Below, piece after piece: positions 15,806 through 62,861 of a stretch of DNA of 64,000 bases. Source of the stretch: Pristiophorus japonicus (Eukaryota); contig NC_091981.1 in the NCBI RefSeq assembly GCF_044704955.1, positions 186,001 through 250,000 of the forward strand, read 5' to 3'. Positions within the stretch are counted from its first letter, which is position 1; each line of letters opens with the position of its first letter. The notes beneath the pieces were generated by a model. It ran no database searches. It saw only the letters and a program-made list of their open reading frames with translations, and was not told where the DNA came from. The position numbers and the translations under genes were made by a program.

Positions 15806-15867
15806 TGGAGCAGGCTCGAGGGGCGAGATGGCCTACTCCTGTTCCTAATTCTTATGTTATGTTCTTA
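15806..15867 (+). mobile_element. About 60-bp CR1 3' terminus inserted into the Gypsy RT
   Basis: tggagcaggctcgagggg...cttatgttatgttctta, flanked by TGGA at 15806-15809 and 15868-15871; absent from the homologous RT region near 51570. Confidence 0.85.
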
Positions 15868-17409
15868 TGGACGCAATAGGTCTGATCCCGTCTGCAGCTA
15901 CCCTCCTCCCCAGGAATTCTACCTCTGGAGCTAAGAAGACACACTTCGCCTTTTTCAGTCGCAGCCCTACCCGGTCCAGTCTGCGTAGCACCTCCTCCAG
16001 GTTGTGGAGGTGTTCTTTAGTATCGCGACCCGTGATGAGGATGTCGTCTTGAAAAACCACCGTCCTTGGAATCGACTTGAGGAGGCTTTCCATATTTCAC
16101 TGAAAGATCGCGGCGGCTGAACGAATCCTGAATGGACATCTGTTATACTCAAACAACCCCTTGTGTGTCGTGATGGTGGTCAGCTTCTTCGACTCGCTCG
16201 CCAGCTCCTGGGTCATGTAAGCTGAGGTCAGGTCCAATTTTGAAAAAAATTTGCCACCGGATAGCGTCGCAAAGAAGCCCTCCGCTCTCAGTGGTGGGTA
16301 CTGGTCTTGGAGTGGCACCCGATTGATGGTGACCTTGTAATCGGCACATATCCTGACCGACCCATCCGTCTTGAGCACCGGCACGATCGGGCTCGCCCAG
16401 TCACTGAATTCGACTGGCGAGATGATGCCTTCCCTCAGCAGGCGGTCCAATTCGCATTCTATCTTTTCCCGCATCACGTATGGCACCGCTCTGGCCTTGT
16501 GGTGTACTGGCCTGGCGTCCGGGTTTATGTGAATCACTACCTTGGTCCCCATGAAAGTGCCGATGCCAGGTTAAAATAATGAGTCAAATTTTTCCAGGAC
16601 CTGTGAGCATGATACTCGCTCCACAGAAGAAATTGCATTGACATCACCCCATTTCCAGTTCATGACAGCAAGCCAACTCCTCCCCAGTAGTGCGGGACCG
16701 TCCCCTGGGACAACCCAGAGTGGCAGTCTGTTCTCTGAATCTTTGTGGGTCACCGGAATTATCTGCTTTGTATATGTCCGTAGCTGTGCATCAATCGGCA
16801 ATAACTTTGGCCTCCTGGCCTTGGACACCCACAACCTTTCGAACTGTTTGATACTCATCAGGGACTGGCTGGCCCCCGTGTCTAGATCCATTAATACTGG
16901 GATGCCATTGAGGAGCACTTTCATCATTATCGGTGGCGTCCTGGAATATGAACTGTATATGTGCTCCACATGAACTCGCTGAACTTCAGCTTCCAGCGAT
17001 TTCCCCCAGTATTCATTTGGCCTCGTAGAGCTTACATCGGGCCCGTCCTCCTCGTACATCAACCTGGCTGCAGGCTTCCTGCACATATGCGCCAAGTGAC
17101 CGCTGACGTTGCAGTTTCTGCAGGTATATTGCTGATACCTGCAAGCTCTGTCTGGGTGTTTGCCTCGACGCCTCCAGCATGAGCTGGAGGCTCCGTTGTT
17201 GGAAACAAAAGGTCCATTACCAGTCGATCGTCTCTGACTGTCTCTGTAACTGTCCTTAAGCGTACCATTACTGGCCGCATTGTCCATTGCAATGGCATGA
17301 ATCGCTGTTCAGTTAGCCATTGTCTCTGTTGAATTCCCCCTTTGGGTTCAACTAATGCTGGGGCATGTCCGATTGCCCTTGTCTGCCTAGAGAACTGTGT
17401 GCCGCGTTA

Positions 17410-18474: not shown

Positions 18475-19010
18475 GCAAGATCCTGCAAATCCCTTGGGAA
18501 GACAGGCGCACCAACATGTGTCCTCGACCAGGCTAGCATCCCCAGTATTGAAGCACTGACCACACTCGATCAGCTTCACTGGGCAGGCCACAGAGTTCGC
18601 ATGATACGAAACTCCCTAAGCAAATGCTTTATGTGGAGCTCCTTTGTGGTAAATGAGCCAAAGGAGGACAGCTGAAACGTTATAAAGACACCCTCAAAGC
18701 CTCCCTGGTAAAGTGCGACATCACCACTGACACCTGGGAGTCCCTGGCCGCAGACCGCCCGAGGTGGAGAAAGTCCATCCGGGAGGGTGTTGAGCTCTTT
18801 GAGTCTCGACGCAAGGAACATGAAGAGGCCAAGCGCAGGCAGCGGAAGGAGCGCGCGGCAAACCTACCGACCACTTCCCCCGACCAATGTCTGTCCCACC
18901 TGTAACAGGATCTGTGGCTCTCGTATCGGACTGTTCAGCCATCAAAGAACTCACTTAGGGAGTGGAAGCAAGTCTTTCTCGATTCCGAGGGACTGCCTAT
19001 GATGATGATG
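18475..19010 (+). mobile_element. RTE-clade LINE 3' fragment
   Basis: Encodes RKILQIPW, QLHWAGH, YKDTLKASL and CPTCNRICGSRIGLFSHQRTH; tail gggactgcctatgatgatgatg; TSD GCATCACAGCAAG(A) at 13488-13500 and 19011-19024. Confidence 0.92.
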
Positions 19011-24370: not shown

Positions 24371-25204
24371 GTCTCATTCGATGGTAGGCACTCCCCCTTC
24401 TCTATCAGTAATGGGAGGGAGTAAGGAAGTGGGGACGCGGGGAGGGTGTCGAGTACTCAAAGGAAACACATTTTGCCAAAGGATTTTGTTCTGAGTATGG
24501 ACAGTTAAATTGTTTGTGTGTGTTGTCTCTTGTCATTATTACTTGTATAACTCTCGAACATAGTTTTTTTGATAATAGTAGAGATAAATAGATAGTTATT
24601 TGTCAATATTGGCAATGTTTACTACAGCAGTGGCGTCATACATATAGGTAAATGACATATGTGTCTGTCTGTCTAACTCTCTCCCCCTCCCCTTCTGTTT
24701 CAGAGTTAAATGGTTTGTGTTTCATTGTGAAATCAGCTAAAGTCCACCATACTTTTACACAATTTGGCGGCACACCTGTGAAGGGTTCACGGCACACCAA
24801 TGTGCCACGGAACACCAATTGAGAACCACTGCTCTATCCCCCTTGCAACAAAGGCCAACATTCCATTTGCCTTCCTTGCTGTACCTACATACTAACTTTT
24901 TGTGTTTCAAAAGCACAGATCCTTCTCTGCTGCTGCATTTTGTAGTCTCCATTTAAATAATAATTAGCTTTATTATTCTTCCTATTAAAGTGGATAGCCC
25001 ATGTTCCCACATTGTACTCCATCTGCCAAATTTTTGCCCACTCACTTAACCTAGAAATATCCCTTTTCAGATTCTTTGTGTCTTCCTCACAACTTACTTT
25101 CCCACCTATCTTTGTATCATCAGCGAATTTGGTTACAGTGCACTTGGTCCCTTCATCTAAGTCATTAATATAGATTGTAAATAGTTGAGGCCCCATTGTT
25201 AAAT

Positions 25205-28200
25205 CATCATCATCATAGGCAGTCCTGCGAAGTGAGGAAGACTTGCTTCCACACCAAAAAGGGATGAGTTCACAGGTGTTCCAATGAAGGACCAAATATT
25301 CCAGATCCCGAACTACATCCTGAAGGGTTGAAGATGCCTGTGCGTGGATTTTTTTAACGTGGGGTGACCGTTTCACACCAGCCACCACACGGGCTTGACA
25401 GAGCGAGGTCTTGGTCCAGTGGCAAGGGTTAACCAGGACGACTGGAGACCAGCTCTGCTGCACGGACCTAGTGCGCTCACATATCGCAGTGTGGGCTGGG
25501 CCCCTGGCCCCTGGGCCCTCGCCTCTCCTGGGCCCAGATCACATCCCTCTACAATCTCTCGCCGCTCCTTCGCCCCGACCTCACCGCTCTTGCTGTACCT
25601 GCACACGCTCCAATCACCGACCTGGACCTTGATGACATCACTCTTTGCTGCCGTCGCAGCTCGTGCTGCTCCCTGACATAGACGTCTCCACGCTGCTCCC
25701 CAGGGCCCCCACGCTGCTCCTGAGGCCCCCACGCTGCTCCTGAGGCCCCCACGCTGCTCCTGAGGCCCCCACGCTGCTCCCAAGGCCTCCACGCTGCTCC
25801 CCAGGGCACCCACGCTGCTCCCGAGGCCCCCACGCTGCTCCTGAGGCCCCCTCGCTGCTCTCCAGGGCCCCACGCTGCTCCCCAGGGCCCCACGCTGCTC
25901 CCCAGGGCCCCACGCTGCTCCCCAGGGCCCCCACGCTGCTCCCGAGGCCCCCACGCTGCTCCCCAGGGCCCCCACGCTGCTCCCCAGGGCCCCCACTCTG
26001 CTCCCCAGGGCCCCCACACTGCTCCCCAGGGCCCCCACACTGCTCCCGAGGCCCACACGCTGCTCCCCAGGGCCCCACACTGCTCCCCGGGGCCACACGC
26101 TGCTCCCGAGGCCCGCCACGCTGCTCTCCAGGCCCCCACACTGTTCCCCAGGGCCCCCACGCTGCTCCCAGGGCCCCCACGCTGCTCCCCAGGGCCCCAC
26201 GCTGCTCCCCAGAGCCCCTATGCTGCTCCCCAGGGCCCCACGCTCTCCCCAGGGCCCCCAAGCTGCTCCCGAGGCCCCCATGCTGCTCCCGAGGCCCCCA
26301 TGCTGCTCCCGAGGTCACATGTTGCTCCCCAGGGTGCCCAAGCTGCTCCCCAGGGCCCCCACGCTGCTCGCCAGGCACCCACGCTGCTCCCCAGGGCCCC
26401 CACGCTGCTCCCCAGGCACCCACGCTGCTCCCCAGGGCCCCCACGCTGCTCCCTCGGCCCCCACGCTGCTCCCCAGGGCCCCCACGCTGCTCCCCAGGCA
26501 CCCACGCTGCTCCCCAGGGCCCCCACGCTGCTCCCGAGGCCCCCACACTGCTCCCCAGGGCCCCCACGCTGCTCCCCAGGGCCCCACGCTGCTCCCGAGG
26601 CCCCCACACTGCTCCCCAGGGCCCCCACGTTGCTCCCCAGGGCCCCACGCTATGCCCCAGGGCCCCCACGCTGCTCCTGAGGCCCAACGCTGCTCCCCAG
26701 GGCCCCCAAGCTGCTCCCCAGGGCCCCCAAGCTGCTCCCCAGGGCCCCCAAGCTGCTCACCCGGGCCCCCATGCTGCTCCCCAGGGCCCCCACGCTGCTC
26801 CAGATGCCCCCATGCTGCTCCCGAGGCCCCCACGCTGCTCCCCAGGGCCCCCACGCTGCTCCCCAGGGCCCCACGCTGCTCCCGAGGCCCCCACGCTATG
26901 CCGCAGGGCCCCGACGCTGCTCCCGAGGCCCCCACGCTGCTCCCGAGGCACCCACGCTGCTCCGATGGGACCCCACGCTGCTCCTGAGGCCCCCACGCTG
27001 CTCCCCAGGGCCCCTACGCTGCTCCCCAGGGCCCCACGCTGCTCCCGAGGCCCCCACACTGCTCCCCAGGGCCCCCATACTGCTCCCGAGGCCCCCACGC
27101 TGCTCCCCAGGGCCCCCACGCTGCTCCACAGGGCCCCCACACTGCTCCCCAGGGCCCCCACACTGCTCCCCGAGACCCCCACATTGCTCCCCAGGGCCCC
27201 CACACTGCCTCCGAGGCCCCCACGCTGCTCCCTTGGCCCCCACGCTGCTCGCAAGGCCCCTACACTGCTCCCCAGAGCTCCCACGCTGCTCCCCAGGGCC
27301 CCACGCTGCTCCCCAGGGCCCCACGCTGCTCCCGAGGCCCCCACGCTGCTCCCCAGGGGCCCCACACTGCTCCCCAGGGCCCCCACACTGCTCGCCAGCA
27401 TCCCACGCTGCTCCTGAGGCCACCACGCTGCTCTCCAGGCCCCCACGCTGCTCCCCAGGGCCCCCACACTTCTCCCAAGGTCCCCACGCTGCTCCCCAGG
27501 GCCCCACGCTGCTCCCCAGGGCCCCACACTGCTCCCGAGGCCACACGCTGCTCCCCAGGGACCCCACGCTGCTCCCCAGGGCCCCCACGCTGCTCCCCAG
27601 GCCCCCATGCTGCTCCCCAGGGCCCCCATGCTATTCCCGAGGCACCCATGCTGCTCCCCAGGGCCCCCACACTGCTCCCCAGGGCCCCCACGCTGCTCCC
27701 CAGGCCCCCATGCTGCTCCCCAGGGCGCCCACGCTGCTCCCGCGGCCCACACGCTGCTCCAGAGGCCCCCACGCTGCTCCCGAGGCCCCTACGCTGTTCC
27801 CCAGGCCCCCACGCTGCTCCCCACGGCCCCACTCTGCACCCGAGGCCCCCATGCTGCTCCCGAGGCCCCACGCTGCTCCCCAGGGTCCCACGCTATGCCC
27901 CAGGGCCCCCACGCTGCTCCTGAGGACCCCACGCTGCTCCTGAGGCACCCATGCTGCTCCGAGGGCCCCCACGCTGCTCCTGAGGCCCCCATGCTGCTCC
28001 CCAGGGCCCCCACGCTGCTCCCCAGGGCCCCCATGCTGCTCCCGAGGCCCCCATGCTGCTCCTGAGGCCCGCACGCTGCTCCTCAGGGCCCCCACGCTGC
28101 TCCCCAGGGCCCCACGCTGCTCCCCAGGGCCCCACGCTGCTCCCCAGGGCCCCACGCTGCTCCCAAGGGCCCCCACGCTGCTCCCCAGGGTCCCACGCTG

Positions 28201-31200
28201 CTCCCGAGGCCCCCACGCTGCTCTCCAGGCCCCCACGCTGCTCTCCAGGCCCCCACGCTGCTCCCCAGGGTCCCCACGCAGCTCCCCAGGGCCCCCACAC
28301 TGCTCCCGAGGTCCCCACGCTGCTCCCCAGGGCCCCACGTTGCTCCCCAGGGCCTCCAAGCTGCTCCCGAGGCCACATGCTGCTCCCCTGGGCCCCCACG
28401 CTGCACCCCAGGGCCCCCACGCTGCTCCCCAGGGCCCCCACGCTGCTCCCCAGGCCCCCATGCTGCTCCCCAGGGCCCCCACGCTGCTCCCGAGGCCCCC
28501 ACGCTGCTCCCGAGGCCCCCACGCTGCTCCCTAGCGCCCCCAAGTTGCTCCCCAGTGCCCCATGCTATGCCCCAGGGCCCCCACGCTGCTCCCGAAGCCC
28601 CCACACTGTTCCCCAGGGCCCCCACGCTGCTCCCCAGGGCCCCCACGCTGCTACCCAGGCACCCCCGCTGCTCCCCAGGGCCCCCACGCTGCTCCCGAGG
28701 CCCCCATGCTGCTCCCGAGGCCCCCACGCTGCTCCCCAGGGCCCCTACCGTGCTCCCCAGGGCCCCACGCTGCTCCCGAGGCCCCCATGCTGCTCCCCAG
28801 TGCCCCACGCTATGTCCCAGGGCCCCACGCTGCTCCTGTGGCCTCCACGCTGCTCCCCAGGGCCCCCACGCTGCTCCCCAGGGCCCCACGCTGCTCCCCA
28901 GGGCCCCACGCTGCTCCCCAGGGCCCCCAAGCTGCTCCCAAGGGGCCCCAAGCTGCTTCCCAGGGCCCCATGCTGCTCCCCAGGTCACCACACTGCTCCC
29001 CAGGGCCCCCACGTTGCTCCCCAGGGCCCCACGCTATGCCCCAGGACCCCCATGCTGCTCCTGAGGCCCCCACACTGCTCCCGAGGCCCCCACGCTGCTC
29101 CCGATGCCCCCAAGCTGCTCCCCAGGGACCCCACGCTGCTCCCAAGGCCCCCACGCTGCTCCCGATGCCCCCATGCTGCTCCCCAGGGATCCCACGCTGC
29201 TCCCGAGGCCCCTACGCTGCTCCCGAGGCCCCCACGCTGCTCCCCAGGGCCCCCACGCTGCTCCTGAGGCCCCCACGCTGCTCCCGAGGCCCCATGCTGC
29301 TCCCGAGGCACCCACGCTGCTCCGAGGGCCCCCACGCTGCTCCGAGGGCCCCCACGCTGCTCCCAAGGCCCCCACGCTGCTCCCCAGGGCCCCCATGCTG
29401 CTCCCCAGGGCCCCCACGCTGCTCCAGAGGCCCCCACGCTGCTCCAGAGCCCCCCACGCTGCTCCCGCGGCCCCACGCTGCTCCTAACGGCCCCCGCGCT
29501 GCTCCCGAGGCCCCCACGCTGCTCCCCGAGGCCCCCGCGCTGCTCCCCGAGGCCCCCACGCTGCTCCCCGAGGCCCCCACGCTGCGCCCGAGGCCTCCAC
29601 GATGCTCCCCAAACCCCACGCTGCTCCCGAGGCCCCCACACTGCTCCCCAGGGCCCCCACGCCGCTCCGAGGCTCCCACGCTGCTCCCCGGGGCCCACAC
29701 GCTGCTCCCGAGGCCCCCATGCTGCTCCCGAGGCCCACATGCTGCTCCCCAGGGCCCCCACGTTGCTCCCCAGTGCCCCACGCTATGTCCCAGGGCCCCA
29801 CGCTGCTCCCCAGGGCCCCACGCTGCTCCCCAGGGCCCCCAAGCTGCTCCCAAGGGGCCCTAAGCTGCTTCCCAGGGCCCCATGCTGCTCCCCAGGTCTC
29901 CACACTGCTCCCCAGGGCCCCCACGTTGCTCCCCAGGGCCCCACGCTATGCCCCAGGACCCCCATGCTGCTCCTGAGGCCCCCACACTGCTCCCGAGGCC
30001 CCCACGCTGCTCCCGATGCCCCCAAGCTGCTCCCCAGGGACCCCACGCTGCTCCCAAGGCCCCCACGCTGCTCCCGATGCCCCCATGCTGCTCCCCAGGG
30101 ATCCCACGCTGCTCCCGAGGCCCCTACGCTGCTCCCCAGGGCCCCCACGCTGCTCCTGAGGCCCCCACGCTGCTCCCGAGGCCCCATGCTGCTCCCGAGG
30201 CACCCACGCTGCTCCGAGGGCCCCCACGCTGCTCCGAGGGCCCCCACGCTGCTCCCAAGGCCCCCACGCTGCTCCCCAGGGCCCCCATGCTGCTCCCCAG
30301 GGCCCCCACGCTGCTCCAGAGGCCCCCACGCTGCTCCAGAGGCCCCCACGCTGCTCCCGCGGCCCCACGCTGCTCCTAACGGCCCCCGCGCTGCTCCCGA
30401 GGCCCCCACGCTGCTCCCCGAGGCCCCCACGCTGCTCCCCGAGGCCCCCACGCTGCGCCCGAGGCCCCCACGATGCTCCCCAAACCCCACGCTGCTCTCG
30501 AGGCCCCCACACTGCTCCCCAGGGCCCCCACGCCGCTCCGAGGCTCCCACGCTGCTCCCCGGGGCCCCCACGCTGCTCCTGAGGCCCCCACGCTGCTCCC
30601 CAGGGCCCCCACGCTCCTCCCAAGGCCCCCACGCTGCTCCCCAGGGCCCCCATGCTGCTGCCCAGGGCCCCCACGCTGCGCCCCAGGGCCCCCATGCTGC
30701 TCCCAAGGCCCCCACGCTGCTCCCGAGGCCCCCATGCTGCTCCCCAGGGCCCCCACGCTGCTCCCCAGTGTCCCCATGCTGCTCCCGAGGCCCCTACGCT
30801 GCTCCCCAGGACCCCCACACTGCTCCAGAGGCCCCCATGCTGCTCACGAGGCCCCCACGCTGCTCCCCAGGGCCCACACGCTGCTCCCCAAGGCCCCACG
30901 TTGCTCCCGAGGCCCCCACGTTGCTCCCTAGGGCCCCCACGCTGCTCCCCAGGGCCCCCACGCTGCTCCCCAGGGCCCCCACGCTGCTCCCGAGGCCCCA
31001 CACTGCTCCCCAGGGCCCCCACGCTGCTCCCGCGGCCCCAACACTGCTCCCGAAGCCCCCACGCTGCTCCCGAGGGCCCCCACGCTTCTCCCGAGGCCCC
31101 CACGCTGCTCCCGAGGCCCCCACGCTGCTCCCCAGGGCCCAAACGCTGCTCCCCAGGGCCCCCACGCTGCTCCCCAGGGCCCCCACGCTGCTCCCCAGTC

Positions 31201-34200
31201 CCGCACGCTGCTCCCCAGAGACGCCACGCTGCTCCCCAGGGCCCCCACGCTGCTCCCGAGGCCCCCACGCTGCTCCCCTGGGCCCCCACGCTGCTCCGCA
31301 GGGCCCCACGCTGCTCCCCAGTGCCCCCACGCTGCTCCCGAGGCCCCCACGTTGCTCCCCAGGGCCCCCACGCTGCTCCTGAGGCCCCCACGCTGCTCCC
31401 CAGGGCCCCACGCTGCTCCACAGGGCCCCCAAGCTGCTCCCCAGGGCCCCACGCTGCTCCCGAGGCCCCCATGCTGCTCCGGAGGCCCCACGCTGCTCCT
31501 CAGGGCCCCCACGCTGCTCCCGAGGCCCCCACGCTACTCCCCAGGGCCCCCACGTTGCTCCCCAGGGCCCCACGCTATGCCCCAGGGCCCCCACGCTGCT
31601 CCTGAGGCCCCCACGCTGCTCCCTAGGGCCCCCACGCTGCTCCCCAGGGCTCCACGCTGCTCCCCAGGGTCCCCAAGCTGCTCCCCAGGGCCCCACGCTG
31701 CTCCCGAGGCCACATGCTGCTCCCCAGGGCCCCCACACTATGCCCCAGGGCCCCCCACGCTGCTCCTGAGGCACCCACACTGCTCCCGAGGCCCCCACGC
31801 TGCTCCCGAGGGCCCCCACGTTGCTCCCGAGGCCCCCACGGTGCTCCCCAGGGCCCCACGCTATGCCGCAGGGCCCTGACGCTGCTCCCCAGGGCCCCAC
31901 GCTGCTCCCGAGGCCCCCACACTGCTCCCCAGGGCCCTCACACTGCTCCCGAGGCCCCCACGCTGCTCCCCAGGGACCCCACGCTGCTCCCCAGGGCCCC
32001 CACACTGCTCCCCAGGGCCCCCACACTGCTCCCCGAGACCCCCACATTGCTCCCCAGGGCCCCCACACTGCTCCCGTGGCCCCCACGCTGCTCCCTTGGC
32101 CCCCACGCTGCTCGCAAGGCCCCTACACTGCTCCCCAGAGCTCCCACGCTGCTCCCCAGGGCCCCACGCTGCTCCCCAGGGCCCCACGCTGCTCCCGAGG
32201 CCCCCACGCTGCTCCCCAGGGGCCCCACACTGCTCCCCAGGGCCCCCACACTGCTCGCCAGCGTCCCATGCTGCTCCTGAGGCCACCACGCTGCTCTCCA
32301 GGCCCCCACGCTGCTCCCCAGGCCCCCCACACTGCTCCCAAGTTCCCCACGCTGATCCCCAGGGCCCCACGCTGCTCCCCAGGGCCCCCACGCTGCTCCC
32401 CAGGCCCCCATGCTGCTCCCCAGGGCCCCACGCTGCTCCTGAGGCCCCCACGCTGCTCCCCAGGGCCCCCACGCTGCTCCCCAGGGCCCCACGCTGCTCC
32501 CCAGGGCCCCACGCTGCTCCCCAGGGCCCCCAAGCTGCTCCCCAGGGGCCCCAAGCTGCTCCCCAGGGCCCCATGCTGCTCCCCAGGTCTCCACGCTGCT
32601 CCCCAGGGCCCCCACGTTGCTCCCCAGGGCCCCACGCTATGCCCCAGGACCCCCATGCTGCTCCTGAGGCCCCCACACTGCTCCCGAGGCCCCCACGCTG
32701 CTCCCGATGCCCCCAAGCTGCTCCCCAGGGACCCCACGCTGCTCCCATGGCCCCCACGCTGCTCCCGATGCCCCCATGCTGCTCCCCAGGGATCCCACGC
32801 TGCTCCGAGGGCCCCCACGCTGCTCCGAGGGCCTCCACGCTGCTCCCAAGGCCCCCACGCTGCTCCCCAGGGCCCCCATGCTGCTCACCAGGGCCCCCAC
32901 GCTGCTCCAGAGGCCCCACGCTGCTCCAGAGGCCCCCACGCTGCTCCTCACGGCCCCCGCGCTGCTCCCGGGGCCCCCACGGTGCGCCCGAGGCCCCCAC
33001 GATGCTCCCCAAACCCCACGCTGCTCCCGAGGCCCCCACACTGCGCCCCAGGGCCCCCACGCCGCTCCGAGGCTCCCACGCTGCTCCCCGGGGCCCCCAC
33101 GCTGCTCCTGAGGCCCCCACGCTGCTCCCCAGGGCCCCCACGCTCCTCCCAAAGGCCCCACGCTGCTCCCCAGGGCCCCCATGCTGCTGCCCAGGGCCCC
33201 CACGCTGCGCCCCAGGGCCCCCATGCTGCTGCCGCAGGGCCCTGACGCTGCTCCCCAGGGCCCCACGCTGCTCCCGAGGCCCCCACACTGCTCCCCAGGG
33301 CCCTCACACTGCTCCCGAGGCCCCCACGCTGCTCCCCAGGGACCCCACGCTGCTCCCCAGGGCCCCCACACTGCTCCCCAGGGCCCCCACACTGCTCCCC
33401 GAGACCCCCACATTGCTCCCCAGGGCCCCCACACTGCTCCCGAGGCCCCCACGCTGCTCCCTTGGCCCCCACGCTGCTCGCAAGGCCCCTACACTGCTCC
33501 CCAGAGCTCCCACGCTGCTCCCCAGGGCCCCACGCTGCTCCCCAGGGCCCCACGCTGCTCCCGAGGCCCCCACGCTGCTCCCCAGGGGCCCCACACTGCT
33601 CCCCAGGGCCCCCACGTTGCTCCCGAGGCCCCCACGGTGCTCCCCAGGGCCCCACGCTATGCCGCAGGGCCCTGACGCTGCTCCCCAGGGCCCCACGCTG
33701 CTCCCGAGGCCCCCACACTGCTCCCCAGGGCCCTCACACTGCTCCCGAGGCCCCCACGCTGCTCCCCAGGGACCCCACGCTGCTCCCCAGGGCCCCCACA
33801 CTGCTCCCCAGGGCCCCCACACTGCTCCCCGAGACCCCCATATTGCTCCCCAGGGCCCCCACACTGCTCCCGAGGCCCCCACGCAGCTCCCTTGGCCCCC
33901 ACGCTGCTCGCAAGGCCCCTACACTGCTCCCCAGAGCTCCCACGCTGCTCCCCAGGGCCCCACGCTGCTCCCCAGGGCCCCACGCTGCTCCCGAGGCCCC
34001 CACGCTGCTCCCCAGGGGCCCCACACTGCTCCCCAGGGCCGCACACTGCTCCGAAGGCTCCCATGCTGCTCCCGAGGCCACACGCTGCTCCCCAGGGACC
34101 CCAAGCTGCTCCCCAGGGCCCCCACGCTGCTCCCCAGGCCCCCATGCTGCTCCCCAGGGCCCCCACGCTACTCCCGAGGCACCCATGCTGCTCCCCAGGG

Positions 34201-37200
34201 ACCCCACACTGCTCCCCAGGGCCCCCACGCTGCTCCCCAGGCCCCCAAGCTGCTCCCCAGGGCCCCCAAGCTGCTCCCCAGGGCCCCCAAGCTGCTCCCC
34301 AGGGCCCCATGCTGCTTCCCAGGCCTCCACGCTGCTCCCCAGGGCCCCCACGCTGCTCCCGATGCCCCCATGCTGCTCCCGAGGCCCCCACGCTATGCCG
34401 CAGGGCCCCGACGCTGCTCCCGAGGCCCCCACGCTGCTCCCGAGGCACCCACGCTGCTCCGAGGGACCCCACGCTGCTCCTGAGGCCCCGACGCTGCTCC
34501 CCAGGGCCCCCACGCTGCTCCCCAGGGCCCCCACGCTGCTCCCGAGGCCCCCACACTGCTCCCCAGAGCTCCCACGCTGCTCCCCGAGGGCCCCCACGCT
34601 GCTCCCCAGGGGCCCCACACTGCTCACCAGGGCCCCCACACTGCTCGCCAGCGTCCCACGCTGCTCCTGAGGCCACCACGCTGCTCTCCAGGCCCCTACG
34701 CTGCTCCCCAGAGCCCCACACTGCTCCCCAGGCCCCCATGCTGCTCCCCAGGGCCCCCACGCTGCTCCCCAGGGCCCCACGCTGCTCCCCAGGGCCCCAC
34801 ACTGCTCCCCAGGCCCCCATGCTGCTCCCCAGGGCCCCCACGCTACTCCCGAGGCACCCATGCTGCTCCGAGGGCCCCCACGCTGCTCCTGAGGCCCCCA
34901 CGCTGCTCCCCAGGGCCCCCACGCTGCTCCCCAGGGCCCCCATGCTGCTCCCGAGGCCCCCATGCTGCTCCTGAGGCCCGCACGCTGCTCCTCAGGGCCC
35001 CCACGCTGCTCCCAAGAGCCCCCACGCTGCTCCCCAGGGTCCCACGCTGCTCCCGAGGCCCCCACGCTGCTCTCCAGGCCCCCACGCTGCTCCCCAGGGT
35101 CCCCACGCAGCTCCCCAGGGACCCCACGCTGCTCCCGAGGTCCCCACGCTGCTCCCCAGGGCCACCACGCTGCTCCGCAGGGCCCCCACGCTGCTCCCCA
35201 GGCCCCCATGCTGCTCCCCAGGGCCCCCATGCTGCTCCCGAGGCCCCCACGCTACTCCCCAGGGCCCCCACGTTGCTCCCCAGGGCCCCACGCTATGCCC
35301 CAGGACCCCCATGCTGCTCCTGAGGCCCCCACACTGCTCCCGAGGCCCCCACGCTGCTCCCGATGCCCCCAAGCTGCTCCCCAGGGACCCCACGCTGCTC
35401 CTCACGGCCCCCGCGCTGCTCCCGGGGCCCCCACGCTGCGCCCGAGGCCCCCACGATGCTCCCCAAACCCCACGCTGCTCCCGAGGCCCCCACACTGCGC
35501 CCCAGGGCCCCCACGCCGCTCCGAGGCTCCCACGCTGCTCCCCGGGGCCCCCACGCTGCTCCTGAGGCCCCCACGCTGCTCCCCAGGGCCCCCACGCTCC
35601 TCCCAAAGGCCCCACGCTGCTCCCCAGGGCCCCCATGCTGCTGCCCAGGGCCCCCACGCTGCGCCCCAGGGCCCCCATGCTGCTGCCGCAGGGCCCTGAC
35701 GCTGCTCCCCAGGGCCCCACGCTGCTCCCGAGGCCCCCACACTGCTCACCAGGGCCCTCACACTGCTCCCGAGGCCCCCACGCTGCTCCCCAGGGACCCC
35801 ACGCTGCTCCCCAGGGCCCCCACACTGCTCCCCAGGGCCCCCACACTGCTCCCCGAGACCCCCACATTGCTCCCCAGGGCCCCCACACTGCTCCCGAGGC
35901 CCCCACGCTGCTCCCTTGGCCCCCACGCTGCTCGCAAGGCCCCTACACTGCTCCCCAGAGCTCCCACGCTGCTCCCCAGGGCCCCACGCTGCTCCCCAGG
36001 GCCCCACGCTGCTCCCGAGGCCCCCACGCTGCTCCCCAGGGGCCCCACACTGCTCCCCAGGGCCCCCACGTTGCTCCCGAGGCCCCCACGGTGCTCCCCA
36101 GGGCCCCACGCTATGCCGCAGGGCCCTGACGCTGCTCCCCAGGGCCCCACGCTGCTCCCGAGGCCCCCACACTGCTCCCCAGGGCCCTCACACTGCTCCC
36201 GAGGCCCCCACGCTGCTCCCCAGGGACCCCACGCTGCTCCCCAGGGCCCCCACACTGCTCCCCAGGGCCCCCACACTGCTCCCCGAGACCCCCATATTGC
36301 TCCCCAGGGCCCCCACACTGCTCCCGAGGCCCCCACGCAGCTCCCTTGGCCCCCACGCTGCTCGCAAGGCCCCTACACTGCTCCCCAGAGCTCCCACGCT
36401 GCTCCCCAGGGCCCCACGCTGCTCCCCAGGGCCCCACGCTGCTCCCGAGGCCCCCACGCTGCTCCCCAGGGGCCCCACACTGCTCCCCAGGGCCGCACAC
36501 TGCTCCGAAGGCTCCCATGCTGCTCCCGAGGCCACACGCTGCTCCCCAGGGACCCCAAGCTGCTCCCCAGGGACCCCACGCTGCTCCCCAGGCCCCCATG
36601 CTGCTCCCCAGGGCCCCCACGCTACTCCCGAGGCACCCATGCTGCTCCCCAGGGACCCCACACTGCTCCCCAGGGCCCCCACGCTGCTCCCCAGGCCCCC
36701 AAGCTGCTCCCCAGGGCCCCCAAGCTGCTCCCCAGGGCCCCCAAGCTGCTCCCCAGGGCCCCATGCTGCTTCCCAGGCCTCCACGCTGCTCCCCAGGGCC
36801 CCCACGCTGCTCCCGATGCCCCCATGCTGCTCCCGAGGCCCCCACGCTATGCCGCAGGGCCCCGACGCTGCTCCCGAGGCCCCCACGCTGCTCCTGAGGC
36901 ACCCACGCTACTCCGAGGGACCCCACGCTGCTCCTGAGGCCCCGACGCTGCTCCCCAGGGCCCCCACGCTGCTCCCCAGGGCCCCCACGCTGCTCCCGAG
37001 GCCCCCACACTGCTCCCCAGAGCTCCCACGCTGCTCCCCGAGGGCCCCCACGCTGCTCCCCAGGGGCCCCACACTGCTCACCAGGGCCCCCACACTGCTC
37101 GCCAGCGTCCCACGCTGCTCCTGAGGCCACCACGCTGCTCTCCAGGCCCCTACGCTGCTCCCCAGAGCCCCACACTGCTCCCCAGGCCCCCATGCTGCTC

Positions 37201-40200
37201 CCCAGGGCCCCCACGCTGCTCCCCAGGGCCCCACGCTGCTCCCCAGGGCCCCACACTGCTCCCCAGGCCCCCATGCTGCTCCCCAGGGCCCCCACGCTAC
37301 TCCCGAGGCACCCATGCTGCTCCGAGGGCCCCCACGCTGCTCCTGAGGCCCCCACGCTGCTCCCCAGGGCCCCCACGCTGCTCCCCAGGGCCCCCATGCT
37401 GCTCCCGAGGCCCCCATGCTGCTCCTGAGGCCCGCACGCTGCTCCTCAGGGCCCCCACGCTGCTCCCAAGAGCCCCCACGCTGCTCCCCAGGGTCCCACG
37501 CTGCTCCCGAGGCCCCCACGCTGCTCTCCAGGCCCCCACGCTGCTCCCCAGGGTCCCCACGCAGCTCCCCAGGGACCCCACGCTGCTCCCGAGGTCCCCA
37601 CGCTGCTCCCCAGGGCCACCACGCTGCTCCGCAGGGCCCCCACGCTGCTCCCCAGGCCCCCATGCTGCTCCCCAGGGCCCCCATGCTGCTCCCGAGGCCC
37701 CCACGCTACTCCCCAGGGCCCCCACGTTGCTCCCCAGGGCCCCACGCTATGCCCCAGGACCCCCATGCTGCTCCTGAGGCCCCCACACTGCTCCCGAGGC
37801 CCCCACGCTGCTCCCGATGCCCCCAAGCTGCTCCCCAGGGACCCCACGCTGCTCCCAAGGCCCCCACGCTGCTCCCGATGCCCCCACGCTGCTCCGAGGG
37901 CCCCCACGCTGCTCCGAGGGCCCCCACGCTGCTCCCAAGGCCCCCACGTTGCTCCCCAGGGCCCCCATGCTGCTCCCCAGGGCCCCCACGCTGCTCCAGA
38001 GGCCCCACGCTGCTCCAGAGGCCCCCACACTGCTCCTCACGGCCCCCGCGCTGTTCCCGAGGCTCCCGCGCTGCTCCCCGAGGCCCCCACGCTGCGCCCG
38101 AGGCCCCCACGATGCTCCCCAAACCCCACGCTGCTCCCGAGGCCCCCACACTGCTCCCCAGGGCCCCCACGCTGCTCCTCACGGCCCCCGCGCTGCTCCC
38201 GAGGCCCCCACGCTGCACCCCGAGGCCCCCGCGCTGCTCCCCGAGGCCCCCACGCTGCGCCCGAGGCCCCCACGATGCTCCCCAAGCCCCACGCTGCTCC
38301 CGAGGCCCCCACACTGCTCCCCAGGGCCCCCACGCCGCTCCGAGGCTCCCACGCTGCTCCCCGGGGGCCCCCACGCTGCTCCTGAGGCCCCCACGCTGCT
38401 CCCCAGGGCCCCCACGCTCCTCCCAAAGGCCCCACGCTGCTCCCCAGGGCCCCCATGCTGCTGCCCAGGGCCCCCACGCTGCGCCCCAGGGCCCCCATGC
38501 TGCTCCCGAGGCCCCCACGCTGCTCCCGAGGCCCCCATGCTGCTCCCCAGGTCTCCACGCTGCTCCCCAGGGCCCCCACGTTGCTCCCCAGGGCCCCACG
38601 CTATGCCCCAGGACACCCATGCTGCTCCTGAGGCCCCCACACTGCTCCCAAGGCCCCCACGCTGCTCCCGATGCCCCCAAGCTGCTCCCCAGGGACCCCA
38701 CGCTGCTCCCAAGGCCCCCACGCTGCTCCCGATGCCCCCATGCTGCTCCCCAGGGATCCCACACTGCTCCGAGGGCCCCCACGCTGCTCCGAGGGCCCCC
38801 ACGCTGCTCCCAAGGCCCCCACGCTGCTCCCCAGGGCCCCCATGCTGCTCCCCAGGGCCCCCACGCTGCTCCAGAGGCCCCACGCTGCTCCAGAGGCCTC
38901 CACGCTGCTCCTCACGGCCCCCGCGCTGCTCCCGAGGCCCCCGCGCTGCTCCCCAGGGCCCCCACGCCGCTCCGAGGCTCCCACGCTGCTCCCCAGGGCC
39001 CACACGCTGCTCCCCAAGGCCCCACGCTGCTCCCGAGGCCCCACGCTGCTCCCGCGGCCCCCAAGCTGCTCCCGAGGGCCCCCACGCTGCTCCCGAGGCC
39101 CCCACGTTGCTCCCAAGGCCCCCACGTTGCTCCCCAGGGCCCCCACGCTGCTCCTGAGGCCCCCACGCTGCTCCCCAGGGCCCCACGCTGCTCCACAGGG
39201 CCCCCAAGCTGCTCCCCAGGGCCCCACGCTGCTCCCGAGGCCCCCATGCTGCTCCCGAGGCCCCCACGCTGCTCCCCAGGGCCCCCACGTTGCTCCCCAG
39301 GGCCCCACGCTATGCCCCAGGGCCCCCACGCTGCTCCTGAGGCCCCCACGCTGCTCCCCAGGGCCCCCACGCTGCTCCCCAGGGCCCCACGCTGCTCCCC
39401 AGGGCCCCCAAGCTGCTCCCCAGGGCCCCACGCTGCTCCCGAGGCCACATGCTGCTCCCCAGGGCCCCCACACTATGCCCCAGGGCCCCCACGCTGCTCC
39501 TCAGGGCCCCCACACTGCTCCCGAGGCCCCCACGCTGCTCCCGAGGCCCCCACCCTGCTCCCCAGGGCCCCCACGTTGCTCCCGAAGCGCCCACGGTGCT
39601 CCCCAGGGCCCGCACGCTGCTCCCGAAGCCCCCACGCTGCTCCCGAGGCCCCCACGCTGCTCCCCAGGGACCCCACGCTGCTCCCGAAGCCGTCACGCTG
39701 CTCCCAAGGTCCCCCCGTTGCTCCCGAGGCCCCCACTCTGCTCCCCAGGGCCCCCACGCTGCTCCCCAGGACCCCCACGCTGCTCCCGAGGCCCCCACGC
39801 TGCTCCCGAGGCCCCCACACTGCTCCTGAGGCCCCCACGCTGCTCCCGAGGCCCCCACACTGCTCCCGAGGCCCCCACTCTGCTCCCCAGGGCCCCCACG
39901 CTGCTCCCCAGGACCCCCACGCTGCTCCCGAGGCCCCCACGCTGCTCCCGAGGCCCCCACACTGCTCCTGAGGCCCCCACGCTGCTCCCCAGGACCCCCA
40001 CGCTGCTCCCGAGGCCCCCACGCTGCTCCCGAGGCCCCCACACTGCTCCTGAGGCCCCCACGCTGCTCCCGAGGCCCCCATGCTGCTCCCCAGGGCCCCC
40101 ACGCTGCTCCCGAGGCCCCCATGCTACGGCCTGAGGCCCCCACGCTGCTCCCGAGGCCCCCACGCTGCTCCCGAGGCCCCCACACTGCTCCCGAGGCCCC

Positions 40201-41639
40201 CACACTGCTCCCAAGGCCCCCACGCTGCTCCCGAGGCCCCCACCCTGCTCCCGAGGCCTCCACGCTGCTTCCGAGGTCCACACGCTGCTCCCCAAGGCCC
40301 CCACGCTGCTCCCGAGGCCCCCATGCTGCTCCCCAGGGCCCCACGCTGCTCCTAAGGCCCTGCTCCCAAGGCCCCCACGCTGCTCCCCATGGCTCCCACA
40401 TTGCTCCCCAGGGCCCCATGCTGCTCCACAGGGCCCCCAAGCTGCTCCCCAGGGCCCCACGCTGCTCCCGAGGCCCCCACGCTGCTCCCGAGGCCCCCAC
40501 GCTGCTCCCCAGGGCCCCATGCTGCTCCCGAGGCCCCCATGCTGCTCCCGAGGCCCCAGGCTGCTCCTCAGGGCCCCCACACTGCTCCCGAGGCCCCCAC
40601 GCTGCACCCCAGGGCCCCCACGTTGCTCCCCAGTGCCCCACGCTATGCCCCAGGGCCCCCACGCTGCTCCTGAGGCCCCCACGCTGCTCCCCAGGGCTCC
40701 CACGCTGCTCCCCAGGGCCCCACACTGCTCCCCAGGGCCCCCAAGCTGCTCCCGAGGTCCCCCCGTTGCTCCCGAGGCCCCCACGCTGCTCCCCAGGACC
40801 CCCACGCTGCTCCCAAGGCCCCCACGCTGCTCCCGAGGCCCCCACGCTGCTCCCCAGGGCCCCCACGCTGCTCCCGAGGCCCCCACGCTGCTCCCGAGGC
40901 CCCCACACTGCTCCCGAGGCCCCCATGCTGCTCCCTAGGCCCCCACGCTGCTCCCGAAGCCCCCATGCTGCTCCCGAGGCCCCCATGCTGCTCCCTAGGC
41001 CCCCACGCTGCTCCCGAGGCCCCCACGCTGCTCCCGAGGCCCCCACACTGCTGCCGAGGCCCCCATGCTGCTCCCTAGGCCCCCACGCTGCTCCCGAAGC
41101 CCCCATGCTGCTCCCAAGGCCCCCTTGCTGCTCCCTAGGCCCCCACGCTGCTCCCGAAGCCCCCACGCTGCTCCCGAGGCCCCCACACTGCTCCCGATGC
41201 CCCCACACTGCTCCTGAGGCCTCCATGCTGCTCCCTAGGCCCCCACGCTGCTCCCGAAGCCCCCATGCTGCTCCCGAGGCCCCCACGCTGCTCCCGAGGC
41301 CCCCACGCTGCTCCCGAGGCCTCCACGCTGCTTCCGAGGCCCTCATGCTGCTCCCCAAGGCCCCCACGCTACGCCCCGAGGCCCCCACGCTGCTCCCCAG
41401 GGCCCCCACGCTACGCCCCGAGGCCCCCACGCTGCTCCCCAGGGCTCCCACGCTGCTCCCCGAGGCCCTGCTCCCCGAGGCCATCACGCTGCTCCCGGGG
41501 CCCTGCTCCCAAGGCCTCCATGCTGCTCCCGAGGCCCCCACACCGCTCCCCGAGGCCGCCATGCCACTCCCCAGGCTGCTGCTCGCTGCTCCCTTCATGG
41601 CCCTGACCTGCCGCTGGTGTTTCACGCAGGTCGGGGCCT
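25205..41639 (-). mobile_element. Non-coding RTE-tailed (SINE-like) retroelement inflated to 16.4 kb by an internal minisatellite
   Basis: About 45-nt 3' tail matching the RTE at 18962-19010; no RT coding; perfect 12-bp TSD CCATTGTTAAAT (25193-25204 and 41640-41651). Confidence 0.85.
25688..41575. repeat. GC-rich minisatellite array, 20-21-bp units CCCCCACGCTGCTCCCCAGGG / CCCCCACGCTGCTCCCGAGG
   Basis: Unit visible throughout; 7-aa periodicity (PTLLPRA / PHAAPQG / PPRCSPG); C-rich on + strand. Confidence 0.98.
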
Positions 41640-41934
41640 CCATTGTTAAATAACACGTTCGTGACTCACGGCTTCCACACTGGCCGCGCTGTGCCCCTCC
41701 CCCCACCCCCGCCCACAGAGCCGGCAAGAAACTTCAGCTCCTCTGCCATCATACTGCTGTTAAATACCCAACTAAGATTTAGACCCAAAGGGATTTGGTG
41801 TAACTGGGGTTCTAACAGCGTATTGACTGCTAAAGAAAGGTCATAGCCCTGGAAAACTAATTTTAATTTTCTGGTTTCAAATTTAGTTTTACGAAACTTT
41901 AAATATATATATCTTGTTGGCTGGTGCAGATATA

Positions 41935-44829: not shown

Positions 44830-44887
44830 ATGTTCCAAGGACATCCTCAAAGTCTCCCTGATAAAGTGCAACATCCCCACCGACACA
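44830..44887 (+). mobile_element. Short internal RTE LINE fragment
   Basis: KDILKVSLIKCNIPTDT; matches 18684-18733. Confidence 0.7.
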
Positions 44888-45345
44888 CAGGAACAGAAGG
44901 AGGCCCATTCAGCCCCTCGAGCTTGTTACACAGGAACAGAAGGAGGCCCATTCAGCCCCTCGAGCTTGTTACACAGGAACAGAAGGAGGCCATTCATCCC
45001 CTCAAGCTTGTTACACAGGAACAGGAGGAAGCCCATTCAGCCCCTCGAACTTGTTACACAGGAACAGAAGGAGGCCATTCAGCCCCTCGAGCCTGTTTCA
45101 CAGGAACAGGAGGAGGCCTATTCATCCCCTCGAGCTTGTTACACAGGAACAGGAGGAAGCCCATTCAGCCCCTCGAGCCTGTTACACAGGAACAGGAGGA
45201 GGCCATTCAGCCCCTCGAGACCTTTATACGGGAGCAGGAGGAGGCCATTCAGCCCCTCGAGCCTGTTACACAAGAGCAGGACGAGGCCATTCAGCCCCTC
45301 GAGCCTGTTACACAAGAACAGGAGGAGGCCATTCAGCCCCTCAGG
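44888..45345. repeat. About 11 x 42-43-bp tandem repeat derived from a CR1 3' terminus
   Basis: Unit acaggaacaggaggaggccattcagcccctcgagcctgttac; the last unit reads directly into minus-strand CR1 3' UTR. Confidence 0.92.
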
Positions 45346-47879: not shown

Positions 47880-48567
47880 TCTGAGACTGACCCTTGCCCC
47901 CACCCTCGCCCCTGACCCATGACTGACCCTCACCCTCACCCCTGACTGAGACTGACCTTCACCCTCACCCTTGACCCATGGCTGAGACTGACCCTCGTCC
48001 TCGCCCTTGACCCATGACTGACCTTCACCCTCGCCCTTGACCCATGGCTGAAACTGACCTTCACCCTCGCCCTCGCCCTTGACCCATGACTGAGACTAAC
48101 CTTCGCCCTCGCCCTCGCCCCTACCCATGGCTGAGACTGACCTTTGCCCTCACCCCTGACCCATGACTGAGACTGACGTTTGCCCTCACCCCTGACCTAT
48201 GACTGAGACTGACCCTCGCCCTCACCCCTGACCCATGGCTGAGACTGACCTTTGCCCTCACCCCTGATCTATGACTGAGACTGACCCTCGCCCCTGACCC
48301 ATGACTGAGACTGACCTTCGCCCTCGCCGTCACCCCTGGCCCATGGCTGAGTCTGACCTTTGCCCTCACACCTGACCCATGACTGAGACTGACGTTTGCC
48401 CTCACCCCTGACCTATGACTGAGACTGACCCTCGCCCTCACCCCGACCCATGACTGAGACTGACCTTCGCCCTCGCCCCTGGCCCATGGCTGAGACTGAC
48501 CTTTGCCCTCACCCCTGACCCATGACTGAGACTGACCCTCGCCCTCACCGCTGACCCATGACTGAGA
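47880..48567. repeat. Minisatellite, about 36-bp unit GACTGACCCTCGCCCTCACCCCTGACCCATGACTGA
   Basis: Direct inspection; 12-aa periodicity in ORF 48121-48441. Confidence 0.92.
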
Positions 48568-49428: not shown

Positions 49429-50782
49429 ATGGCCACCGGTAGCACAAAGGAATGGTACTGTGTTGGTGAGGACTGGGACGAATTCGTTGAGAGGCTCCAG
49501 CAGAGCTTTGTCACGAAGGACTGGCTGGGAGAGGAAGCGGCTGGCAAGCGGAGGGCATATCTACTGACCAGCTGTGGATCTAAGACGTACGCGCTGATGA
49601 AAGACCTGCTCGCACCCGAGAAGCCAGCGGACAAGTCCTTTGAAGAGCTCAGCACTCTGATCGGTGAGCACCTCAAACCGGCGAGCAGTATACACATGGC
49701 CCGGCACCGGTTCTACACACACTGGCGTCGGGAGGGACAATGCATATCGGACTTTGTTGCAGACCTTCGGTGTTTGGCCAGCCTCTGTAACTTCACAGAC
49801 GCCTGCAGGGGGGAGATGTTAAGGGATTTCTTCATTGAGGGCATGGGTCATGCCGGGATTTTCAGGAAGCTTATTGAGACCAAGGACTTGACTTTGGAAA
49901 AGGCAATGTTGACAGTTCAGACCTTCATGGCAGGGGAAGAGGAGACCAAGATAATTTACACGTTCAGCCCTGGTTCCAACATGGCAATGGACCAGGGAGT
50001 TAACATTGTAAACGTGACTCTGCGTTTAGGGTTAGGGTAGGCAAGGGCAATTCGACACCGCCCAGGCAGCAACAGGCTCTAGGGTGGGCCAGCAACAGAG
50101 ACAATGGCGGGGGGAATCAGCAATTCATGCCATCACAAGGGACAATGCGTCCCGGGATGGGACCATTGACACTCAGCAACAGAGTGCTCAGGAGTAATCA
50201 AAGAGACAATCAGAGAGGAATGCCTGTTAACAGTTCCTTTGTTCACAACAATCTCAGCTCATGATGGAGGTGCGGTGGCAGACATGCTGCGAGAACCTGT
50301 AGGTTTCAACAATTTACCTGTAATAATTGTAACTTCAGTGGACACCTGGCCAGAATGTGCAGAAAGCCCGTAGCGAGGCTAGTTTATGAGGCAGAGGAAC
50401 CAGACGAGGAGTCTGCAAGGTAGGGTGATGCTTGGAGCAAAACTATGGACGTTGAAGTCCAGCGGGTTTATGTGGCAGACGTCCACAACTCGTATACCAA
50501 AACGCCACCTATGATGATGAAAGTTCTATCAAATGGCATCCCGGTACGCATGGAGCTGGACTCAGGAGCCAGCCAGTCACTTATGAGTGCCCAACACTCA
50601 AAGCTAACAGGCCCAAACTGGAACACATTGATACGCAGCTACGGACGTACACCAGAGAGATCATCCCAGTACTCGGCAGTGCAAACTTGGTGGTCACACA
50701 CAATGGATCGGAGAACCAGCTGCCACTCTGGATTATCCCGGGGAATGGTCCCGTGCTCTTGGGGAGGAGCTAGTTAGCCGAG
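49429..50782 (+). pseudogene. Gypsy gag-protease, disrupted
   Basis: MATGSTKEWYCVGEDWDEFVERLQQ; stop at 50038-50040; knuckle CNNCNFSGHLARMC; protease MELDSGASQS followed by a frameshift. Confidence 0.9.
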
Positions 50783-53899: not shown

Positions 53900-54776
53900 C
53901 TCACCTCAAGCCCAGCTCACCTCTCCAATCCAGCCCAGTTCACCTCTCCAGGCCCAGCTCATCACCAGCCCCAGCTCACCTCTCCAGGCCCGGCCCAGCT
54001 CACCTCTCCAGCCCAGCTCACCTCTCCAGGCCCAGCCCAGCTCTTCAGGCCTAGCGCACCTCTCCAGGTCCAGCTCACCTCTCCAGGCCTAGCTCACCTC
54101 TCCAGGCCTAGCGCACCTCTCCAGGCCTAGCTCACCTCTCCAGGCCCAGCTCACCTCTCCAGGCCTAGCTCATCTCTCCTGGCCCAGCTCACCTCTCCAG
54201 GTCTAGCGCACCTCTCCAGGCCCAGCTCACCTCTCCAGGCCTAGCTCACCTCTCCAGGCCTAGCTCACCTCTCCAGGCCTAGCGCACCTCTCCAGGCCTA
54301 GCTCACCTCTCCAGGCCTAGCTCACCTCTCCAGGCCTGGCCCAGCTCACCTCTCCAGGCCTAGCGCAACTCTCCAGGCGTAGCTCACCTCTCCAGGCCCA
54401 ACTCACCTCTCCAGGCCTAGCTCACCTCTCTAGCCCAGCTCATCTTTCCAGGCCCAGCTCACCTCTCCAGGCCCAGCTCACCTCTCCAGGTTCAGCTCAC
54501 TGCTCCAAGCCTAGCTCATCTCTCCAAGCTCTCCAGGCCCAGCTTACCTCTCCAGGCCTAGCTCACCTCTCCAGCCCAGCTCACCTTTCCAGGCCCAGCT
54601 CACCTTTCCAGGCCCAGCTTACCTCTCCAGGCCTAGCTCACCTCTCCAGCCCAGCTCACCTTTCCAGGCCCAGCTCACCTCTCCAGGTTCAGCTCACTGC
54701 TCCAAGCCTAGCTCATCTCTCCAAGCTCTCCAGGCCCAGCTTACCTCTCCAGGCTTAGCTCACCTCACCAGCCCAG
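53900..54776. repeat. Minisatellite, 19-bp unit CC(C/T)AGCTCACCTCTCCAGG
   Basis: Direct inspection. Confidence 0.95.
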
Positions 54777-54871
54777 CAACTAGAATGTAGCACTAGGAAG
54801 AGACCAGGCAGAAAATAAGTAAATATAAAAGGCTTGTATTGTCTCACGCTCCTGAGAAGGTTCGATAGCAG

Positions 54872-55192: not shown

Positions 55193-55199
55193 TTGCTAC

Positions 55200-62851: not shown

Positions 62852-62861
62852 GTGGATTTTA

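Follow-up and report, generated by a model that had tools for sequence, protein, structure and literature searches.

The window analysed here, 64,000 nucleotides of the forward strand of contig NC_091981.1 of Pristiophorus japonicus (positions 186,001 to 250,000; assembly GCF_044704955.1), lies 0.19–0.25 Mb into a contig of 307 Mb (genome size 5.9 Gb) and contains a minisatellite of 15,889 bp enclosed within a single retroelement insertion. The explanation favoured here, with a probability of about 0.85, is that the host belongs to a family of non-autonomous elements of approximately 600 bp which end in the tail of an RTE long interspersed nuclear element (LINE), are copied by the RTE of the genome and expand short internal repeats in place. 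The evidence supports well the view that this locus is the extreme case among those examined and that the family acts as an unusually regular nursery of minisatellites. The insertion and its two flanking target-site duplications (TSDs) comprise the following features, in window coordinates.

41640–41651: TSD, 5' copy, of which up to four element-side bases also fit the family consensus head
41577–41639, minus strand: GC-rich head, one monomer of about 81 bp with some 10 nt missing from its 5' end
41599–41638, minus strand: hairpin with a 13-bp stem, in the head
41592–41599, minus strand: degenerate copy of the TATA-like CATAAAAG of the family, in the head
25688–41576, minus strand: minisatellite of about 780 units of 20/21 bp, derived from the repeat at the head–body junction
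32948–37855: 2,454-bp tandem duplication within the array (32948–35401 versus 35402–37855)
25473–25687, minus strand: G-rich body of unassigned origin, common to the family and absent from the sampled RTE 5' loci
25279–25472, minus strand: RTE-derived segment with the distal 5' untranslated region (UTR), the start ATG (25316–25318) and about 12 decayed codons, the second of which is a stop
25205–25278, minus strand: RTE 3' end, with the last codons of the open reading frame (ORF), a 3' UTR of about 40 nt, the (GAT)n tail and a T5 run
25193–25204: TSD, 3' copy, of which two element-side bases also fit the GAT tail
18475–19010, plus strand: 5'-truncated copy of the partner RTE LINE, outside the insertion and given for context

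The perfect 12-bp repeat CCATTGTTAAAT is present at 25193–25204 and 41640–41651 and, with both strands searched, nowhere else in the window. Between its two copies a 63-nt head, the array, the body and the (GAT)n tail follow one another on the minus strand, in agreement with the initial annotation of this stretch, which had described such a bracket around a head of about 65 nt, an array of about 15.9 kb, a body and an RTE-type tail. Among random 30-nt windows taken outside the arrays, a flank match of 12 or more bases arose by chance in one of 2989 pairs. As many as six bases of the 12-bp TSD could equally belong to the element, two extending the GAT tail and four fitting the family head, as expected from microhomology at the junctions.

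The element is widely dispersed. A body query returned 5238 first-look candidates genome-wide, the best 39 non-self copies being 89–94% identical to it, and a head query returned 1053 candidates, with a linked body hit in all 30 of the loci fetched (including the query's own locus and near-duplicates, some copies being partial or inverted). Four incidental family hits within the 320,542 bp fetched for the LINE point, as a rough estimate, to a copy number of the order of 10^4–10^5. The consensus derived from 47 copies is 596 nt long and array-free, and within its first 110 nt or so a short motif of the GGGAGCAGCG type, 10–13 bp long, occurs three to four times. After removal of duplicates, of four rows in which the body was incomplete and of one inverted row, TSDs were detected in 15 of 49 copies, as against 10 of 980 mismatched control pairs; a second copy set gave eight of 22 against one of 880, and five of its 27 rows lacked a detectable tail. 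The expectations that head and body would co-occur elsewhere and that other copies would bear TSDs were therefore upheld, and the short non-autonomous RTE partner postulated earlier corresponds to a dispersed family of about 600 bp with a shared RTE tail. The literature searched, which leaves most subscription journals out of reach, holds no description of this family, and on the literature alone, Dfam and Repbase not having been compared, it is probably uncatalogued.

Array loci were located with CpG-intact exact patterns, among the matches listed. A two-unit pattern was found at 344 places in the genome, 72 of them in this array, and further patterns and fetches yielded 25 other array loci outside a cluster on contig C5 that is described below. 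All 25 adjoin an element head or body; 20 retain the normal order of head, array and body, and the other five are rearranged or lack one end. Their arrays are 135–3854 bp long (median 743 bp), with units of 19, 20, 21, 23 or 28 bp (within arrays, the one in the window included, units are 83–96% similar), and at 17 further loci two units, up to a maximum of four, stand at the body junction. The 20/21-bp units derive from the GGCCC...GGCCC junction of the head, the 28-bp unit extends over two copies of the motif, and the 81-bp monomer over two that lie further apart. The suggestion of a minisatellite nursery is thus supported. The accompanying statement that the element carries a minisatellite seed was right in so far as the family seeds many loci, but the typical element is array-free and holds only a cluster of short direct repeats, from which the unit length varies by locus.

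These observations suggest the following course of events. An element of about 600 bp, in which a GC-rich head and body of unassigned origin precede the distal 5' UTR and start codons of an RTE and its last 74 nt or so, would be copied by the RTE LINE through target-primed reverse transcription, a route indicated by the shared tail, the TSDs and the variable 5' ends. Its first 110 nt or so offer three to four copies of the 10–13-bp motif flanked by GGCCC microhomologies, and slippage or unequal exchange from one motif to another, once the copy has inserted, would produce a tandem dimer of 19–28-bp units or duplicate the whole monomer of about 81 bp. Some dimers would then grow on into minisatellites, while seeds of two to four units are probably also carried along by retrotransposition. 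The copy in the window would accordingly have been inserted short and have grown about 28-fold in place.

The RTE affinity of the element extends to both of its RTE-derived segments. The tail matches the RTE fragment at 18959–19010 in 45 of 52 bases, which bears out the RTE-type tail of the initial annotation; its proposed length of about 45 nt, on the other hand, has to be raised to about 74 nt because a longer match, of 61 of 74 bases and including (GAT)n, exists to the RTE end at 61127–61196. Similarly, what had been taken for a non-coding body of about 430 nt consists of about 215 nt of unassigned origin and about 190 nt of RTE 5' UTR with start codons. The partner LINE was traced upstream stepwise to a near-complete copy with a single ORF of about 3.2 kb, spanning about 3.2 kb from ATG to tail and followed by a 3' UTR of about 40 nt; the ORF starts with an endonuclease-like region (Pfam E-values of 7.7e-4 and 1.4e-3, below cut-off; atlas 0.96) and contains RVT_1 (E-value of 1.3e-15). 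Most copies of this LINE are 5'-truncated. Segment 25279–25472 matches its distal 5' UTR, start codon and first codons: positions 219 to about 400 of the body match the 5' region in 30 of 30 RTE loci at 77–84%, and the two consensus sequences agree in 168 of 196 bases. This 5' segment directly adjoins the last 74 nt or so of the RTE, and the element has no coding capacity, its ATG being followed by a stop. Judged from these alignments, the element is a G-rich head and body joined to a bipartite RTE segment. The single ORF, N-terminal endonuclease, reverse transcriptase and short 3' UTR of the partner fit the RTE architecture outlined in the available part of PMC4844689.

The strongest competitor, although clearly less probable than a composite element, is an internal-deletion derivative (of the RTE-N or Bov-A type) of an RTE subfamily outside the sample, which would own the G-rich head and body as its 5' UTR. 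The direct junction of the RTE 5' and 3' parts, the differences at fixed sites between the element and the sampled RTE, and the existence of a second RTE tail type in the genome would all fit such an origin, and the T run and absent A and B boxes described below suit transcription by RNA polymerase II. None of the 30 RTE 5' loci, however, carries the G-rich part, an unrelated C-rich stretch being found upstream instead, in a sample biased by its query to one subfamily. If true, this alternative would relabel the element and leave the nursery mechanism as it is.

The seed region has a GC fraction of 0.75, and the head gave no match to a structural RNA. No Rfam match was obtained within the element in six loci of the family and no tRNA was found within it by ARAGORN in 12 loci (one tRNA-Lys sits outside a TSD), which agrees with the earlier statement that no tRNA- or 5S-like head is present; given these results and the simple hairpin fold, tRNA, 5S, 7SL and ribozyme heads were rejected. 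No A- or B-box-like match occurs in the first 118 nt, only one-mismatch matches being found further in, and in 57 of 70 copies a run of at least five T residues is found some 55 nt from the 3' end. A classical RNA polymerase III short interspersed nuclear element (SINE) of the tRNA, 5S or 7SL type was therefore rejected, on the grounds that the head is not RNA-derived, 5' A and B boxes are lacking and the T run stands ahead of the 3' end. The head is instead a monomer of about 81 bp with the 13-bp-stem hairpin and the CATAAAAG box, present as two to four tandem monomers in some copies; the folding z-scores of the hairpin are −3.8, −1.6 and −0.8 in three copies. The consensus contains GGCCCCGA and GGCCCGGG, which may be set beside the GGCCCCGG motif of birds, the heads looking unrelated when compared by eye.

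A 5'-end survey covered 44 loci picked by array or junction. In the 25 copies with an intact hairpin arm the 5' end lies 18–38 nt before the anchor, in 16 of them at 26–32 nt and in none beyond 38 nt, and the TATA box of a preceding monomer predicts a +1 position at 27–29 nt before the anchor. On the strength of this agreement, a tentative and rather doubtful proposal is that tandem instability belongs to the life cycle of the element: the TATA-like box of one monomer would start RNA polymerase II transcription at the next, only tandem-headed copies would give full-length offspring, duplication would renew the promoter, and minisatellites would be a by-product whose new units could pass between neighbouring copies by ectopic conversion, as in the seven 28-bp loci described below. 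Two results weigh against it, namely that 19 of the 44 surveyed copies are shorter or rearranged at the 5' end, and that no matching peak of headless copies is evident in the set used for the consensus.

At the locus itself, tandem repeat analysis of 25688–41576 gives a period of 20, 780.9 copies and 83% matches, and parsing yields 776 units of mainly 20 or 21 bp in 234 variants, nearly all with a derived G5 run. A 42-mer from the array occurs four times in the 5.9-Gb genome, every time inside this same array. The G4Hunter score of the array, at 1.14, is the highest, compared with 0.39 for the seed. Long ORFs across the array were dismissed as read-throughs of a stop-poor repeat. The two halves of the internal 2,454-bp duplication differ by five mismatches without gaps, and reflect either a recent unequal exchange or an assembly duplication; outside it, the longest shared run of units is 11. 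That the element and array are real but the length of 16 kb was inflated by assembly is improbable. Such an error might be suspected from the near-identity of the duplicated halves, from the proximity of the contig end and from a size four times that of any other array found, but the 234 unit variants and the lack of any other shared run longer than 11 units are difficult to reconcile with it, about 13.4 kb remain when the duplication is discounted, and an unrelated neighbouring array is equally long.

Arrays seem to grow in place from the cluster of short direct repeats, since the copies with arrays do not group together on the tree, itself weakly resolved, and unit lengths are locus-specific. 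In a tree of 69 of the 76 bodies the 11 array-bearing copies require 11 changes, compared with a mean of 10.3 after shuffling. An expansion of roughly 30-fold after insertion had been proposed for the copy in the window, and the present estimate, about 28-fold in place (16.4 kb against a consensus of about 0.6 kb), is close to it. In SVA elements a variable number of tandem repeats (VNTR) is part of the consensus and moves with the element, driven by L1. The shark element is likewise a non-autonomous composite with an internal GC-rich tandem repeat, but its typical copy is array-free and it has an RTE tail in place of L1. An SVA-like inheritance, in which retrotransposition carries long arrays, would account for the constant internal site of the arrays, for the 20-bp unit shared by several loci, for the two units at the junction in 17 loci and for a common derived unit in seven 28-bp loci with separate flanks. 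It is nevertheless very improbable: the consensus is array-free, unit lengths vary between loci, the 42-mer is confined to one array, the array copies are not grouped on the (weak) tree, and a 16-kb copy that keeps its head is hardly to be expected when the RTE measures about 3.2 kb and its copies are mostly 5'-truncated. The chance that an independent minisatellite merely landed in or beside an element copy is negligible, for, abundant as unrelated minisatellites are in the region, the unit is the junction motif of the element itself, every one of the 25 other arrays built from such units adjoins the same element, and flanks matching over 12 bp arose by chance in 1 of 2989 pairs.

Several observations weigh against growth in place within an RTE-mobilized family. 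No more than about a third of the copies yielded TSDs, the one scored in L016, among the 15, is doubtful, and an earlier scoring with a faulty 5' boundary gave five of 50. The placement of the partner in the RTE clade comes from its architecture and from motifs that we take to be typical of the clade, and not from a tree. The element differs by about 14% from the sampled RTE, and one copy (L225) ends in (AAG)n with an 11-bp TSD; for these two reasons the true partner may, from the alignments, be another RTE subfamily. The (AAG)n end of L225 resembles a second RTE tail type seen at window positions 54890–55193 and in L072. The body tree is star-like, with three of 66 inner branches well supported and only two changes forced, so that some arrays may share an origin. 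Among the contigs of four sequencing runs mapped to 24400–25680, none of which bridges the stretch, there was no sign of an empty site or of a spanning read. These contigs cover 25432–25680 in organisms A and B and not in organism C, in whose run the RTE-derived part and the LINE flank are covered; a gap in cover proves nothing. Among the loose contig ends listed, none runs on into the right flank. The census itself, made with exact patterns among the matches listed, is incomplete, and larger arrays may exist.

Also on this side of the balance, 46 of 47 genome matches of the 28-bp dimer fall in seven copies within C5:4.53–5.61 Mb, and independent expansion leaves this clustering within 1.1 Mb of one chromosome unexplained. 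The seven copies share the same derived unit and derived bases, and their flanks are unrelated. They are L210, L093, L009, L211, L034, L038 and L032, with 2–18 units each. Segmental duplication was rejected, as the sequence shared by the flanks consists of other repeats that do not adjoin the element ends. Ectopic conversion between neighbours is our guess, and part of the pattern may come from CpG-dependent ascertainment, given that an array of 45 units on C10 gave one match only. The size of arrays provides the remaining points of this kind: across 26 arrays, length and distance from the contig end give a rho of 0.08 (p = 0.71; 0.21 without this locus), nine of 25 arrays lie in the outer tenth with a p value of 0.047 that is uncorrected for element density, and the 3.9-kb array sits mid-chromosome.

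Why this array is four times as long as the next largest found (3.9 kb) can be answered by a best guess. The extreme size most likely results from an expansion-prone locale, about 0.2 Mb from the end of a chromosome-scale contig and with unrelated giant arrays nearby. As a general rule, chromosome-end position is unsupported across the 26 arrays. G-quadruplex formation was rejected as the sole cause, because the G5 variant, which recurs in at least 10 further places (49 of 114 matches), is found elsewhere in arrays of up to about 2 kb, and the 2.8- and 3.9-kb arrays score low. Shark chromosome ends are described as higher in GC in the available part of PMC10620051.

Other tandem repeats and family variants were recorded alongside these results. 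An unrelated 24-bp minisatellite of about 18.4 kb lies 16 kb away (window 21–9710 and L213:1168–9901; G000:C5:177267–195710), and no host element was identified in its flanks among the fetched loci. An 80-bp array of at least 5.3 kb stands near the contig start (L214:4598–9900), and smaller arrays occur in the window at 44885–45342 (42 bp), 47921–48567 (36 bp) and 53910–54777 (19 bp). A different tandem repeat has grown from the middle of the body at L232:3204 onward. Copies most like the one in the window are over-represented towards contig ends, with about 10 of 40 in the first 6 Mb of C5, possibly through low CpG decay or local homogenization. One subfamily has a shorter, different head that starts at one common position (L012, L019, L027, L028 and L030), and inverted element sequence is found at the 5' end of L045, L055, L189, L194, L195, L216 and L233, the fold-back lying at the head hairpin in several of them; the array of L216 has expanded within the inverted segment.

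The window also holds a Gypsy-type long terminal repeat retrotransposon pol at 50774–53590 on the plus strand, with a 938-codon open stretch encoding reverse transcriptase, RNase H and integrase, and a second at 13774–17308 on the minus strand, broken up by stops, whose pieces include protease, RNase H and integrase. Another LINE type has left fragments at 24832–25195, 10742–11404, 59698–60420 and 62674–63303, the last three with RVT_1; the first breaks off inside the left TSD, and the right flank does not continue it.

The family offers one seed present at tens of thousands of loci and independently expanded at dozens of them, with five unit lengths and a more than 100-fold range of sizes. 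With the element ends, most often both retained, as fixed markers, it amounts to a natural replicated experiment on the birth of GC-rich minisatellites, and the same system could show whether a sequence variant or chromosome position makes a few arrays giant. It also provides a concrete hypothesis for the transcription of non-RNA heads and enlarges by one independent example the set of bipartite RTE SINEs with such heads. The surprise is limited, because both the design and transposon-seeded minisatellites have precedents.

Among these precedents, all cited from the available parts of the sources, the BuceSINE and ManaSINE2 elements of birds (564 and 484 nt) place GC-rich heads of unknown origin on bipartite RTE tails (PMC4844689, PMC7245038). 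The shark element shares with them a GC-rich non-RNA head, an RTE 5' UTR part with a 3' end, and a comparable length, about 600 nt here; it differs in its RTE partner, in a head that is dissimilar by eye only, without alignment, and that forms a hairpin monomer, tandem in some copies, and in its tandem expansion, which those parts do not mention. A bipartite design of this kind is called common for RTE in PMC5786205, where the 5' regions of WALLSI1/1A are described as unlike any RNA or transposon. WALLSI1/1A, WALLSI3, RTESINE2, RTE-N2_Lch and Bov-A likewise combine part of the RTE 5' UTR with the extreme 3' end and a microsatellite tail (PMC5786205, PMC7245038), but the RTE part of the shark element extends past the start codon and takes in the final codons of the ORF, and no array nursery is reported for those elements in the part of PMC5786205 consulted. 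The pure internal-deletion forms (RTE-N, Bov-A) keep the 5' end of the LINE itself, and none of the 30 RTE 5' loci sampled here, from one subfamily, has the 5' part of the element. The suggestion in the initial annotation that the element may be an undescribed class has accordingly to be abandoned: its body holds an RTE 5' UTR segment, and bipartite RTE elements with GC-rich heads have already been described in birds and wallaby. The chondrichthyan SINEs described in the available part of PMC5499810 have tRNA heads and L2 tails.

With regard to array formation, the closest parallels are the SINE-derived satellites (sSats) of squamates, described in the available part of PMC10702118 as tandem units of 70–290 nt, from a few to hundreds of units, with a subtelomeric bias. 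In both systems tandem repeats arise repeatedly from part of a SINE, at many loci in the shark, and the form with both termini, uncommon in sSats, is the usual one here. The units of the shark arrays are shorter (19–28 nt), the monomer of about 81 nt being present in only 2–4 copies, and the subtelomeric bias is weak here, whereas sSats are tRNA-headed and clearly biased. Finally, the mouse (GGCAGA)n repeats from SINE B1, Ms6-hm and Hm-2 from MaLR long terminal repeats and the Alu-derived minisatellites (PMC9659126, as available) also represent dispersed retroelements in which an internal short repeat expands at many loci; they belong to other element classes, with shorter units in the case of B1, while in the shark element five unit lengths have arisen from one site.

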